Shown piece by piece: positions 2,780-64,000 of a DNA stretch of 64,000 bases. The translations under genes and the position numbers were made by a program. Within the stretch, counting starts at the first letter, position 1. Each line of letters starts with the position of its first letter. The stretch is from Eledone cirrhosa. Taxonomy: Eukaryota. The notes beneath the pieces were generated by a model. It searched no databases, was not told where the DNA came from, and saw only the letters and a program-made list of their open reading frames with translations. The stretch is taken from positions 1,922,001-1,986,000 of the forward strand of contig OZ024760.1 of assembly GCA_964016885.1 (NCBI GenBank). The letters run 5' to 3'.

Positions 2780-3033
2780 TGGCAAGTAAGTATGTTTTGA
2801 AACAATGAGCAGGTTTGAAATTAGAAAATAGAATACCTTTCACCGTATTTTTGACTAAAGGAATTTTACTGATAATGGGGTTTAAAACCCTCAAATAAAT
2901 GGAAAGAGATGAGTATTGACGTACATTGACGTCACTACTCATCTTTTTCCATTTATCTGAGGGTTCTAAGGCCCATTATCAAGCTAAAATTCCTTTAGTC
3001 AAAAATACGGTGAAAGGTATTCTATTTTCTAAT
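2780..3033. repeat. Imperfect palindrome of about 100-bp arms, probably a PLE-type fold-back end
   Basis: 2820-2921 is the approximate reverse complement of 2927-3033; followed by (AT)n. Confidence 0.7.
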
Positions 3034-3587
3034 ATATATATATATATATATATATATATATATATATATATATATATATATATATCATCATCATCATCGT
3101 TTAACGTCTATCTTCCATGCTAGCATGTGTTAGATGGGAGTTATCCCACTTGAGGCAAGGTTGGTCGGGTGACAGTGTCTCGCTCGTATAGGACTATCTG
3201 GCAGGTTTTCTACGGCTGGATGCCCTTCCTAACACCAACCACGTTTACAGTGTGGAACTGGGAACTTTTTACCGTGTTTTCTACACGGCCACCATCATCA
3301 TCACAAGCATCATCATCATCACAATCATCATCATCATCATCATTATCAATATCCAACAACACCATCAACATCTTCTGCTCTGCCATCATCTTCTCATCTT
3401 CATCATTACAATCACCAACAACACTGACATGACCATCATCATCATCATCACCATCAGAGTCACCATCACTATCATCATCACCACCACCACCACCACGATC
3501 ATCCTCATCATCATCATCATCATCACCAACAGAATCACCATCCCTTAATACATATATATATATAAATATATATATATATATATATAA

Positions 3588-3838
3588 ATGATATTAATAA
3601 ATGGAAACTATATTTATAAAACCATATTTATTCTATTATATATATTTCAAGGATACCAAAACTTTGGTACGCCCTCATCAAATAAAATACAAAATTTGTT
3701 TTATAAATATCTCTTTGCTTATATATATATATATAGTTATGTAATAAACAACATAAGTTATTACATAACTAATAAGCTCTGTAACCTACATAGAGCACTC
3801 TTTTTTCCTGGACCTTTATGATGGAATTACTTCATTCA
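3588..3838 (-). mobile_element. Diverged copy of the 32.4-kb hammerhead element (core mutated to TTGATGA)
   Basis: Minus strand 3629-3689 reads tattttat|TTGATGA|gggcgtacca...tggtatcctt|GAAA|tatata|TA|atagaata, followed by the same gttttataaatatagtttccatttattaatatc tail. A stub of that tail also occurs near 12638-12663. Confidence 0.65.
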
Positions 3839-58935: not shown

Positions 58936-59394
58936 TTAGAGGAATTTTGGAGGGTAGGGGAATAGTTTATTGTTTAATTATTTTTAGTTGTTATTTTATG
59001 TAGTTCGTAATTTTTTTAATAGTTTTGTTCAGGTGTTTTTTTTTAAACTGAAATAATTGTTTCTACTATTGGCACAAGGCCAGCAATTACCTAGTACATT
59101 ACTGGTACTTTATTTTATCAACCTGTAAGGATGAAAGGCAAAGTTACTGAAATAATTGTTTCTACTTTAGGCACAAGGCCAGCAATTACTCAGTGCATTA
59201 CTGGTAAATAATGGGGACTAGGTGGGAAGAAGGATAGACAGAGTGAAAAGTAGAGAGAGGAGGGAGAGGAGAGAGAGAGAAAGAGTAGGGGATGGGAGAG
59301 AGAAGGATGGTGGGGGTAAAGGATCAGTGGGTTGAGGACACTGGATGGCATGTTAAGTGGTTTGCTGCAAGACTAGTAAAGCAAGAAGTGTTAG

Positions 59395-61490
59395 TAGTGG
59401 TGGTGGTGGTGGTGGTGGTGGTGGTGGTGGTGGTGGTGGTGGTGGTGGTTGGTGGTGGTGGTTGGTGGTGGTGGTGGTGGTGGTGGTGGTGGTTGGTGGT
59501 GGTGGTGATTGGTGGGGGGGTGATTGGCGGTGGTGGGGGGGTGATTGGTGGTGGTGGTGATTGGTGGGGGTGGGGTGGTGGTGGTGGTGGTGGTGATTGG
59601 CGGTGGTGGTGGTGGTGATTGGTGGTGGTGGTGGTGGGGGGTGGTGGGGGTGGGGGTGATTGGTGGTGGTGGTGATTGGTGGGGGTGGTGGTGGTGGTGG
59701 TGGTGGTGGTGATTGGTGGTGGTGGTGGTGGTGGTGGTGGTGGTGGGGTGGTGGTGGTGATTGGTGGTGGTGATTGGTGGGGGTGGTGGTGGTGGTGGTG
59801 GGGGTGGGGTGATTGGTGGTGGTGGTGGTGGTGGGGGTGGTGGTGATTGGTGGTGGTGGTGGTGGTGGTGGGGTGGTGGGGGTGGGGGTGATTGGTGGGG
59901 GTGGTGGGGTGGTGGTGGAGGTGGTGATTGGTAGGGGTGGTGGTGATTGGTGGTGGTGGTGGTGGTGGGGTGGTGGTGGTGGTGGTGATTGGTGGTGGTG
60001 GTGGTAGTGGTGATTGGTGGTGGGGTGGTGGTGGTGGTGGTGGTGATTGGTGGTGATTGGTGGTGGTGGTGGTGGTGGTAGTGGTGGTGGTGATTGGTGG
60101 TGGTGGTGGTGGTGGTGATTGGTGGTGGTGGTGGTGATTGGTGGTGGTGGTGGTGGTGGTGGTGATTGGCGGTGGTGGTGGTGATTGGTGGTGGTGGTGG
60201 TGGTGGTGGTGGTGATTGGTGGGGGGGGGGGGGGGTGATTGGCGGTGGTGGTGGTGGTGGTGATTGGTGGTGGTGGTGGTGGTGATTGGTGGGGGGTGGT
60301 GGGGGTGGGGGGTGATTGGTGGTGGTGGTGGTGGTGGTGATTGGTGGTGGTGGTGGTGATTGGTGGTGGTGGTGGTGGTGGTGGTGGTGGGGTGGTGGTG
60401 GTGATTGGTGGTGGTGATTGGTGGGGGGGTGGTGGTGGGGGTGGGGGTGGGGTGATTGGTGGTGGTGGTGGTGGTGGGGTGGTGGTGGGGTGGTGGTGAT
60501 TGGTGGTGGTGGTGGTGGGGTGGTGGGGGTGGTGGGGTGGTGGGGGTGGGGGTGATTGGTGGGGGGTGGTGGGGTGGTGGTGGTGGTGGTGATTGGTAGG
60601 GGTGGTGGTGATTGGTGGTGGTGGTGGTGGTGGGGTGGTGGTGGTGGTGGTGGTGGTGGGGTGGTGGTGGTGATTGGTGGTGGTGATTGGTGGGGGTGGT
60701 GGTGGTGGTGGTGGGGGTGGGGTGATTGGTGGTGGTGGTGGTGGGTGGTGGTGGGGTGGTGGTGATTGGTGGTGGTGGGGTGGTGGGGGTGGTGGGGGTG
60801 GGGTGGTGGGGGGTGGGGGTGATTGGTGGGGGTGGTGGGGTGGTGGTGGTGGTGGTGATTGGTAGGGGTGGTGGTGTTGGTGGTGGTGGTGGTGGTGGGG
60901 GTGGTGGTGGTGGTGGTGATTGGTGGTGGTGGTGGTAGTGGTGATTGGTGGTGTGGTGGTGGTGGTGGTGGTGGTGATTGGTGGTGATTGGTGGTGGTGG
61001 TGGTGGTGGTAGTGGTGGTGGTGATTGGTGGTGGTGGTGGTGGTGGTGATTGGTGGTGGTGGTGGTGGTGGTGATTGGTGGTGGTGGTGGTGGTGATTGG
61101 TGGTGGGGTGGTGGTGGTGGTAATTGGTGGTGGTGGTGGTGGTGATTGGTGGTGGTGGTGGTGGTGGTGGTGGTGGTGATTGGTGGTGGTGGTGGTGGTG
61201 GTGGTGGTGATTGGTGGTGGTGGTGGTGATTGGTGGTGGGGTGGTGGTGGTGGTGGTAATTGGTGGTGGTGGTGGTGGTGGTGGTGATTGGTGGTGGTGG
61301 TGGTGGTGGTGATTGGTGGTGGTGGTGGTGGTGGTGGTGGTGGTGATTGGTGGTGGTGGTGGTGGTGATTGGTGGTGGTGGTGGTGGTGGTGGTGGTGAT
61401 TGGTGGTGGGGTGGTGGTGGTGGTGGTGATTGGCGGTGGTGGTGGTGGTGGTGATTGGTGGTGGTGGTGGTGGTGGTGGTGGTGGTATGG
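59395..61490. repeat. 2.1-kb (GGT)n array punctuated by GATT
   Basis: Direct observation. Confidence 0.95.
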
Positions 61491-64000
61491 TAATAGTGGT
61501 CATTGGTATTGGGGATGGTGTGTGTGTGTGTATTTATGTGTAAATGTGTGTGTCTGTGTGTGAGAGAGTGGGTTTATGTATGAATGTGTAAATGCGTTTG
61601 TGTGTGGTGTGTGCGTATGTGTGAGAGGGTTTATGTATGAATGTGTGTGCGTGTGTGTGTGTGTGTGGTCAGTTTGGAAGTAAGTGGTGCTTGTTGTAGA
61701 CAGTAGCCAGTCTTGGAAGATGTGTTGACAGGGTAGTGGGGGAGGGGTGTAACAGAGAGAGAGAGAGAGAGAGAGAGAGAGAGAGAGAGAGAGAGAGAGA
61801 GAGAGAGAGACAGAGAGAGAGAGACAGAGAGAGAGAGACAGAGAGAGAGAGAGAGAGTAGAAGTGTCCACCACCACCACCACTACAACAACAGCAACATA
61901 ATCATCATCACCACCACCACCACCACCACCACCACCACCACCACCATCATCATCATCACCACCACCACCACCACCACTACAACAACAGCAACATAATCAC
62001 CACCACCATCATCATCATCATCATCATCATCATCATCATCATCATCATCATCATCATCACCACCACCACCACCACCACCACCACCACCACCACCACCACC
62101 ACCACCACCACCATCATCATCATCATCATCATCACCACCACCACCACTACAACAACAGCAACATAATCATCAACACCACCACCAGCACCACCACCACCAC
62201 CACCATCATCATCATCATCATCACCACCACCACCACCACCACCACCATCATCATCATCACCATCATCATCATCATCATCGTCGTTTCTGGTTCCAATGAC
62301 ATTACATGCCAGAACTTTACTACTGCAACCCTGTTAACACCCTCCCCCAACATCTACCATAACCACATTAAAAACCACCACCAACACCCTATCTATCTAT
62401 ATCTGTGTATATATGTATATATATATAATATATATATAAATATACACATACATACATACATTCATATATACATTCATATATGCATGCATATATATATATA
62501 TATATACACACATATATATACATATATATATATATATATTATATATATATATATATAAATATATTTATATATATATATATATATATATCTGTGTGTGTCT
62601 TGTGTATAGTCAGGAAGACATATATATATATATATATATATATATATATATATATATATATATACACGTGTGTGTGTATATGTGTGTGTGTATATATATA
62701 TATATATATATATATATATATATATACACACATATACACACACGTGTGTGTGTGTGTGTATGTGTGTAAATATATATATATACACACATATACACACGTG
62801 TCTGTGTGTGTATATGTGTGTATATATATATATATATACACACACATATACACACACGTGTATATATGTGTGTGTATATGTATATATATATTTATATATA
62901 TATATAATATACACACACATATATACACACACGTGTGTGTATATATGTGTGTAGTCAGAAAGACCTGTCTCAAGTAAATGGATGCATTTAACAGATTCTC
63001 TAGATAAACAGTGTGGAGCAGGTGGGGTGGGGGAAGGTATGGGGGTGGTGGGGTGAGAAGAAAAATAAAGAAGACTGTAAAAAATAAAAGACAAAAAACA
63101 GACAGAAGTCTTACATAGAACACGTTTGTGTTGTTGTTGTTGCTGCTGTTGTGGTCTTAACCTTCCATTTCCATCCCTTCACCACCACTTAAACTCCTCT
63201 CAAAAACCTTGTTTTCTTTTTAACAAGGATCCACCACCACCACCACCACCACCATCCCCAACATCACCCTCACTATTACCACCATTATCACTACTATGAC
63301 CACCACCACTACCACAGCCACCTCCATCCCCAACACCACCCTCACTATTACCACCATTATCACTACTATGACCACCACCAACACCACCACCATTATCACT
63401 ACTATGACCACCACCATTATCACTACTATGACCACCACCACCACCATTACCACCATTATCACTACTATGACCACCACCACCACCACTACCACCATTACCA
63501 CCATTATCACTACTATGACCACCAACAGAAATAACAAAAATAAAACATGGAAAAAATATATTAGTTTAACTCTTGAAATAGCTGGAAGATAGTTTTAACT
63601 TTTCGGACACTAGTCCTTCATCAGAAGATAGAGTTAGAAACAAAAGATAAATAGAAAGTAAAGAGTGATGAGAGGAAGGAACAGGGAAAATGACAAAAAA
63701 ACTTGGGGAGAAAAAAACACATGTGCGTATTCAGTCAGCCATAATTTAAAAACAACAGAAGGCTGGACTGGAAATCTTCGTTAAAGTTTTAATGTTGCAA
63801 AAACATTATACGTATTTCAATGACGTAGTTATATTATTTGATCATGATGCAAGACTTAGGTGATGTCATCAGGTGTGAATCGAAAAATTAGTTAATTGAT
63901 AATAGAATTACAGTGAACACAAACAGAATAGAGAAAAGATTTGATTTGGGGATGGCCTACTTATTCGGTGTCATAGTAATGGCACATACTCACCAATGCA

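Follow-up and report, generated by a model that had tools for sequence, protein, structure and literature searches.

Hammerhead families at (AT)n tracts in a 64-kb window of Eledone cirrhosa: probable truncated ends of Hydra-clade Penelope-like elements and a hairpin in their tails

A stretch of 64,000 nucleotides from Eledone cirrhosa (GenBank assembly GCA_964016885.1, contig OZ024760.1, positions 1,922,001 to 1,986,000 of the forward strand; hereafter the window, with positions counted from its first letter) contains many short elements that carry hammerhead ribozyme motifs and lie at (AT)n tracts. This raises the question of what these elements are and what sets their ends. An earlier note on the window (the original prediction) described them as a system driven by Penelope-like elements (PLEs), composed of autonomous elements and short ribozyme-bearing parasites. 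We consider it probable that the window holds several hammerhead families at (AT)n, mostly truncated 3' ends of retrotransposons of the Hydra clade of PLEs together with one 310-bp retrozyme, and that a hairpin present twice in Hydra elements likely positions two starts of the reverse transcriptase (RT). Published work is cited by accession, and statements on it refer to the portions of these sources that were available.

Hammerhead motifs and their carriers

A strict descriptor of the type I hammerhead was run on the window, on dinucleotide shuffles, and on the reversed and complemented sequence. The window gave eight matches, five of them distinct, with cores at 12950(-), 13368, 13678, 13988, 25552, 27405(-), 32472 and 63624(-). 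The first four belong to one family (A), and the match at 63624(-) is weak. Three sets of 300 shuffles yielded on average 0.09, 0.08 and 0.04 matches, with a maximum of 2, and the reversed and complemented sequence yielded none. The cores at 14717(-) and 53909(+) are intact and fell outside the strict scan through a mismatch or bulge in stem I; both were recovered by a relaxed scan, in which five of the 13 rows are not hammerheads.

The CUGANGA and GAAA boxes, the UH cut site, stems I to III and an open stem I are all present in families A, B, E, F, G and H. These features were incomplete or degenerate in the first copy of family C (C1), in D, in the second copy of E (E2) and at 63624(-). In particular, the core at 3681(-) lacks C3, the core at 15304(+) is altered, and the cores at 23255(-) and 23711(+) have UG at the cut site, and in the core at 45070(-) (C2) an inversion junction has removed the 5' strand of stem I. 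The match at 63624(-) is doubtful, with a poor stem III, no (AT)n end and no tail hairpin of the kind described below.

Local alignment scores separated seven families (A, B, C, D/G, E, F and H). The original prediction had counted at least six, which holds; D (23214/23708) and G (53904) are 74-77% identical and form one family. It had also placed intact, near-intact and degenerate cores along the window, and cores were indeed found within about 50 nt of each position it gave. The near-palindromic nature of stem III was confirmed by the self-complementarity read from the sequence. Stem II pairing is retained despite changes between E and E2 and between D and G, with few copies per family.

The carriers border simple repeats, as had been noted. 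A repeat lies within 180 nt of the cut site in 10 of 13 cores (background 21% for (AT)5+) and within 60 nt in 6 of 13 (background 6%), by a repeat-end pattern that also accepted (TC)n and one short AT/GT end; F and C2 were counted on this basis. As likewise anticipated, some insertions hold their 3' end a second time in inverted orientation, six of 11 in all (A, B, C2, D, F and G); the automatic scan for such copies was swamped by microsatellite matches, and only rows verified against the sequence were counted. C1 has a fold-back at the core instead of an inverted 3' end, and no inverted 3'-end copy was found in E, E2, H or 63624(-). Judged by their sequence, the hammerhead motifs of the window are real and are predicted ribozymes.

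The carriers and related elements are as follows.

12749..13087 (-): inverted copy of family A, one 310-nt unit plus about 30 nt; its 3' end joins (AT)n
Core 12950 (-): hammerhead of this inverted copy, predicted cut after 12920
13094..14113 (+): family A array, 3.3 identical 310-bp units; cores 13368, 13678 and 13988
14634..14964 (-): family B body; core 14717, with the short end at (AT)n 45 nt past its predicted cut after 14679
14965..15101 (+): inverted 3'-end copy of family B; 98-nt tail with bulged hairpin 15013-15034
15279..15431 (+): family C, copy 1 (C1); fold-back at core; degenerate hammerhead 15304-15334
15370-15388 (+): tail hairpin of C1; (AT)n on both sides of the copy
45008..45105 (-): family C, copy 2 (C2); core 45070; short end; inverted copy with internal deletion
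23060..23798 (unstranded): family D, two degenerate copies arranged as a 630-bp palindrome, with cores at 23255(-) and 23711(+)
23131-23164 (-): tail hairpin in the left arm of D; left boundary of D approximate
53595..53990 (unstranded): family G, one family with D; short end at (AT)n; core 53909(+); left boundary approximate
53672-53705 (-): hairpin in the tail of the inverted 3'-end copy of G
23921..24064 (-): inverted copy of family F with a short end at (AT)n; 1.2 kb deleted internally at a GAAG microhomology
24065..24319 (+): 5'-truncated Hydra-clade GIY-YIG endonuclease, of which the C-terminal part with CxxC..E..N..CxH remains; profile E 3e-18
25545..25747 (+): family F 3' end; core 25552, predicted cut after 25596
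25657-25696 (+): hairpin in the 97-nt tail of family F
27338..27415 (-): family H; core 27405, which contains one additional base; short end 27 nt past the cut site, at (AT)n
32440..32657 (+): family E; core 32472; tail hairpin 32576-32595
3587..3722 (-): second copy of family E (E2); degenerate core 3681; short end
12634..12668 (+): third fragment of family E, confined to the 3' end; short end
3735..3840 (+): element I; inverted end of 14 bp; tail hairpin 3776-3796; no hammerhead left; E 2.4e-05
45262..45388 (+): element J1; no hammerhead seen; hairpin 45338-45361, followed by (AT)n
53210..53345 (-): element J2, a relative of J1; no hammerhead seen; hairpin 53252-53287
63596..63624 (-): doubtful hammerhead remnant

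The inverted copies of F (23960-24065) and C2 (45070-45105) have internal deletions at microhomologies of 4-5 nt, which suggests template jumps during synthesis. Further matches to CTGANGA at 47362, 10723, 10828 and elsewhere have no hammerhead fold and were rejected. A possible remnant at 35144-35180 (+), absent from the original prediction, has an intact first box, a 7-bp stem II and a damaged second box followed by a 15-bp duplication, and is doubtful.

Relation to Hydra-clade Penelope-like elements

The coding link to PLEs is provided by family F. Its carrier (23921-25747) retains the last 85 residues of an endonuclease (24065-24319). An exhaustive search with this fragment found 1467 relatives at E 0.001; a word-indexed protein search gave no match, and viral contigs contained no Hydra relatives. 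The longest relative combines an RT with DKT, a CxCX5C linker and the endonuclease motif CxxC..E..N..CxH. Among 15 long open reading frames (ORFs) of related loci, CxCXnC is present in all 15, ADKT in 13 and RWK in 7. The RT region is absent from the truncated copy in the window, and a profile made from the 15 ORFs matched the window only at the F endonuclease. A weak GIY-YIG match in Pfam was obtained for one of ten F homologs.

An RT with DKT, CxCX5C and a C-terminal endonuclease with CxxC..E..N..CxH are the features given for the Hydra clade in PMC8557442. With the endonuclease motif in the F ORF and the RT and linker features in its homologs, the link to PLEs can be narrowed to this clade. 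Other PLE clades do not agree: Naiad and Chlamys have an N-terminal endonuclease, whereas here the endonuclease comes last in the ORF, and Penelope and Poseidon have no Cys linker, whereas the F homologs have one.

The anatomy of F comprises an internally deleted inverted copy at the left, the truncated ORF, the 3' untranslated region (UTR), the hammerhead and a right-hand tail. The hammerhead is near the 3' end, with 56 nt from the cut site to the short end. Insertion at (TA)n, an inverted copy and a one-sided tail are complete in B, D, F and G and partial in C and E. Most carriers in the window are likely truncated 3' ends of Hydra-clade retrotransposons.

Much of this has been published. 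PMC8557442 and its supplement describe inverted truncated copies, tails and (TA)n targets, and the supplement reports a (TA)n preference and a hammerhead for Hydra-1_Obim of Octopus bimaculoides. The window shares with the Hydra clade the C-terminal endonuclease with CxxC and CxH, the hammerhead near the 3' end, the (TA)n targets, the inverted truncated copies and the one-sided tail. In contrast, published tails measure 30-40 bp, whereas those found here measure about 60-120 nt, and the window hammerheads differ, by eye, from the Hydra-1_oBim motif in File S2 of that paper. Many sequence-distinct minimal hammerhead families per genome, with palindromic helix III and pairs on opposite strands, were described in PMC4209133. 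The window agrees with these minimal PLE hammerheads in having several consensus families, a long helix II combined with a short helix I, a palindromic helix III, opposite-strand pairs 100-700 bp apart and mostly single motifs from truncated PLEs, and shows no essential difference from them. Retrozymes, in turn, are described as non-autonomous PLE passengers (PMC7229834; bioRxiv 10.64898/2026.07.22.740005).

As families, inversions, tails, (TA)n bias and retrozymes are all in print, the system first noted is known biology in a new window, and the hammerhead families themselves are ordinary PLE biology. Hence, the part of the original prediction that invoked PLEs stands in narrower form, and its novelty does not. 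Short ribozyme-bearing parasites are evident only in the tandem family A; B, C, D/G, E and H are spaced like ordinary Hydra 3' ends and may be 5'-truncated copies. The window contains no complete autonomous element.

Tail hairpin and positions of the ends

Five families (B, C, D/G, E and F) carry a bulged hairpin, RCUC..UNGAGY, in the one-sided tail. It consists of RCUC, an upper stem, a 2-nt bulge beginning with U, and GAGY, and it also occurs in three elements without a hammerhead (I, J1 and J2). Elements J1 and J2 are candidates for hairpin-only passengers. A descriptor written post hoc matched the window eight times, always in tails, compared with 0.6-0.7 matches in shuffles; J2 fails this descriptor. 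Because the descriptor was derived from the window copies themselves, the hairpin was tested on an independent set, the best 80 of 179 confirmed Hydra loci in metagenome contigs.

A sense hammerhead was present in 52 of the 80 loci, with 61 hammerhead matches in total; some loci, such as L002, L010 and L054, have intact ORFs. Where 120 nt were available downstream, the strict hairpin descriptor matched 19 of 50 stretches (shuffles 0.03, reverse complement 2), and relaxed descriptors matched 24 and 29 of the 50 (shuffles 0.16 and 0.43, reverse complement 3 and 6). Forty-two distinct hairpins were located by sequence anchors alone. Thirty-two of them (class 1) lie mostly 37-51 nt past the cut site, with four at 60-72 nt, and ten (class 2) lie 101-134 nt past it. 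With a 2-nt bulge, the first upper pair forms in 39 of the 42 hairpins (UA 21, CG 17, UG 1), compared with 3/42, 1/42, 7/42 and 23/39 in other registers. For covariation, 36 of the 42 hairpins were aligned; the other six had long loops, were wrongly anchored or were near-duplicates. Pairing is seen in 95.7% of 210 cells, with 27 two-sided changes versus 8.0 after shuffling. The UA/CG state requires four changes on a tree built from 26 endonuclease regions, which are 37-87% identical (median 48%).

A covariance model was built from the independent loci only. It found 61 matches there, 36 of which are training copies. None of the 60 placed matches lies inside an ORF, with ORFs occupying 82.6 of 162 kb. 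On the window, the model gave eight matches at E 5, seven of which are tails. Two copies of the hairpin precede the start codon, and the second ends 11-39 nt before the first ATG in 11 loci whose 5' end is intact. The full 5' region of a Hydra element thus runs from the hammerhead through about 40-50 nt to hairpin 1, and after a period of about 60-80 nt to hairpin 2 and the start codon. A scan of 14 of these loci with Rfam recognised no family at E 0.05. By eye, the hairpin sequence can be seen in the published consensuses of Hydra-2_Amil, of the entry preceding Hydra-1_Crog and of Hydra-1_Ajap, where two copies stand upstream of the ATG. A description of it was not found in the open-licence literature searched; the main text of PMC8557442, as available, does not use the words 'hairpin' or 'stem-loop', and the available text of PMC4209133 does not treat the region downstream of the ribozyme. 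The tail hairpin is apparently an undescribed cis-element of Hydra PLEs.

The hairpins coincide with the ends of copies. In the Hydra loci, 17 of the 61 hammerheads run into (TA)5+ within 200 nt: nine end at 29-58 nt without a hairpin, and seven at 95-111 nt with exactly one. The window has short ends of 27-51 nt without a hairpin in H, C2, G, B, E2 and the plus-strand copy of D, and long ends of 97-151 nt with one hairpin in C1, E and F; the minus-strand copy of D has the hairpin and a less clean end. We also compared pairs of copies of the same family, excluding chance matches and pairs without (AT)n ends. The shorter copy ends 0-9 nt before hairpin 1 in L011, in L018/L023 and in window families B, C, D, E (twice), F and G, and 0-9 nt before hairpin 2 in L010 (twice), L046/L049 and L054, positions that (AT)n overlap blurs by a few bases. 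In L010, a single contig shows both situations, with hairpin 1, hairpin 2 and ATG at the 5' end, and hairpin 1 followed by (TA)n at the expected start of hairpin 2 at the 3' end. These ends, 0-9 nt 5' of hairpin 1 or hairpin 2, imply that the hairpins likely position two RT starts.

At two further sites (L002:450-480 and L011:2090-2125), (TA)n lies exactly between the end site and the next hairpin, as if a copy had been inserted at, or had regenerated, its own start site.

A mechanism can be proposed in which the Hydra RT/endonuclease protein would bind either hairpin on the RNA, (TA)n DNA would be nicked, and copying would start 5' of the hairpin in use, at a distance of a few bases. If synthesis were primed from each of the two target strands, with start 1 on one strand and start 2 on the other, the inverted end and the one-sided tail would result; the short carriers would arise through early stops and template jumps. 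For the hammerheads, the prediction is that they cut the precursor RNA as dimers, via the palindromic stem III. In vitro work on a Poseidon PLE (PAc; PMC11167929) offers a parallel: the tail is delimited by two internal sites of RT initiation, the reaction needs the RNA 3' of these sites, extension takes place on both target strands, and PLE ends equal RT starts. In contrast to the Hydra elements, PAc belongs to another clade and has its starts inside a single AC-rich stem loop of the ORF, and the available text of PMC11167929 does not describe a duplicated covarying hairpin just 3' of each start. In a wider view, towards which we lean only slightly, the duplicated, clade-wide hairpin is a ruler that docks a telomerase-related RT, the tail equals one hairpin period, and RNAs that gain the hairpin (J, I) become mobile and targeted to (TA)n.

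Several results weigh against the reading of the carriers as Hydra ends set by a twin hairpin. The coding link to Hydra applies to family F; B, C, D/G and E are tied to the clade by hairpin and spacing, and H by spacing alone. One of the 17 ends (73 nt, without hairpin) belongs to neither class, and hairpin 2 is not visible in the window. The strict hairpin descriptor fails in 31 of the 50 downstream stretches, some of which are short-end copies. The four lower pairs of the hairpin are nearly invariant and therefore uninformative on structure, so that the covariation comes from two upper pairs, and strong branches force only two of the four UA/CG changes on the tree. The covariance model overlooks the tails of B and F, two of its eight window matches have E <0.05, and its match at 2645 is not a tail. 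Furthermore, RT of Poseidon starts inside its AC-rich stem loop, not before one (PMC11167929). As to the hammerheads, a scan of the window at the Rfam gathering score found none, and two of six motifs fold clearly better than shuffles (A, z score -6.4; G, z score -2.6). This weak outcome is as expected for minimal motifs, yet it limits the case.

The same outcome could be taken to mean that the motifs are chance matches in AT-rich repetitive DNA, with four of the six folding no better than shuffles. We regard this as having almost no chance of being true, given eight strict matches versus <0.1 expected, fixed spacing to ends and hairpins, and the same anatomy in 52 of the 80 Hydra loci; shuffle counts and independent loci exclude it except at 63624 and 35144. 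A more serious competitor, still rather unlikely in our view, holds that B, C, D/G, E, H, I and J are not random truncations; they would be the parasites of the original prediction, short non-autonomous elements in their own right that have fixed 5' ends and make use of the Hydra protein. In C, the fold-back of both copies lies immediately 5' of the core, about 300 nt upstream in D show no match to the Hydra profile, and J1 and J2 share a body and a hairpin without a hammerhead; non-autonomous PLE derivatives are, moreover, in print (PMC7229834; bioRxiv 10.64898/2026.07.22.740005). However, the same anatomy is seen in F, an ordinary copy of an autonomous element that has been truncated, most PLE copies lack their 5' part (PMC8557442), and the upstream lengths of B, C, E and H are shorter than many Hydra 3' UTRs, in which the hammerhead lies 74-545 nt past the matched coding region in most loci.

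Two other explanations accept the hairpins and assign them a different role. They might act on DNA, in endonuclease recognition or resolution of an intermediate, so that the ends would be cleavage points instead of RT starts. The tail was ascribed to endonuclease resolution in PMC8557442, and work cited in PMC11167929 found that the Penelope tail is needed for endonuclease recognition. We nevertheless judge this role improbable, as the upper stem contains G-U pairs, the motif is found on the sense strand only, and the RT starts of Poseidon matched its tail ends in vitro (PMC11167929). Equally improbable is that the hairpins are 5'-UTR control elements (for translation, packaging or autoregulation) whose nearness to the ends has another cause. 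The short distance of hairpin 2 from the first ATG is what such elements would show, whereas they would leave unexplained two end classes, each 0-9 nt before one hairpin, across families with a median protein identity of 48%. A control role in the 5' UTR and a role in positioning RT starts are compatible and could coexist.

If the hairpins do position RT starts, they bear on a wider problem. PLE reverse transcriptases are the closest relatives of telomerase, and their template choice and one-sided tail are still unexplained; PMC11167929 mapped starts in another clade, with no conserved signal named in its available text. A short covarying hairpin at a fixed distance from both end classes offers a direct target for mutagenesis and a possible minimal cargo signal for protein-directed DNA insertion. 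It also provides a simple marker to find and bound truncated Hydra copies and their passengers in microsatellite-rich genomes.

Family A and other features of the window

Family A consists of identical units of 310 bp with a GC content of 35% and one hammerhead each, which has an extended stem I. Four frames tested gave no Pfam match. The array begins 5 nt past the predicted cut site, and its right end is replaced by a tRNA-derived short interspersed element (SINE). The inverted copy ends at (AT)n and differs from the array at one of 339 nt. Neither the descriptor nor the covariance model found the tail hairpin in family A; an unrelated GC-rich hairpin lies 5 nt past its end.

Family A is, by its sequence, a putative retrozyme of the type without long terminal repeats (non-LTR) as defined in PMC7229834. 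It shares with such retrozymes (PMC7229834; bioRxiv 10.64898/2026.07.22.740005) tandem units of about 300 bp, GC below 45%, a type I hammerhead per unit, the absence of an ORF and a predicted self-paired RNA, and the axolotl HHR_Amex2 likewise has U-U at the base of stem II. It differs in that the PLE-type insertion signature, an inverted copy ending at (AT)n, is directly visible. Family A is likely moved by a PLE.

The hammerhead pattern of family A had no exact match in metagenome and viral contigs. Unit A itself was found in 20 sequencing runs from 17 studies under 18 organism labels, with 65-100% of 31 sampled words. Four runs were examined. Runs X2 and X10 gave closed 340-nt contigs, which fit a circle or a tandem, and X20 gave a 394-nt contig; these differ from unit A at 0, 2 and 3 positions and were assembled from only 27, 68 and 12 records, respectively. 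X10 and X20 share a change to A-U instead of U-U at the base of stem II, and X2 had no close match to the SINE neighbouring the array. Among 12.8 million DNA reads of X23, under the label of the best holder, none fell on the unit or the SINE, a result that is not informative for the unit. Two runs from the sample of X18 had no unit A. No RNA run is among the listed carriers, which has no bearing on expression. Retrozymes are described as species-specific (PMC7229834), whereas unit A appears under 18 labels, most likely through trace contamination by a very abundant, uniform repeat. That retrozyme A is a 310-nt circle moving between species seems to us very unlikely.

Simple repeats make up 18% of the window and (AT)n 12%, and several SINE families are present. 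Pfam was run on 197 of 256 candidate frames, and the only credible matches were a ferlin domain and a zf-RVT piece; the Hydra fragment was not recognised. The ferlin exon lies at 12000-12254 (-), with a domain resembling double-stranded RNA-binding domains (Pfam E 5e-15). The minus-strand hammerheads at 12950 and 14717 would be in sense on the ferlin pre-mRNA, if that extends over both. The zf-RVT domain (Pfam E 1e-4) belongs to a fragment of a long interspersed element (LINE) at 43548-44060 (+). A short frame at 27496-27600 (+) had no Pfam match, and we take it to resemble the C-terminus of LINEs with a restriction-like endonuclease.

A 93-bp unit is repeated in 13 copies with 98% identity at 17377-18588; it derives from a dispersed repeat with other copies at 6298, 46595, 54740 and 58125. 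A palindrome of 214 bp (90%) at 2820-3033, in which no hammerhead was found, ends at (AT)n, and a related end lies at 2750-2770. At 47085-47415, an element that contains a SINE and has long inverted ends and an apparent 12-bp target duplication sits inside another repeat. Finally, a short element at 53022-53170 has a 22-bp inverted end, (AT)n on both flanks and a one-sided tail of 62 nt without the Hydra hairpin, and possibly represents another PLE clade.

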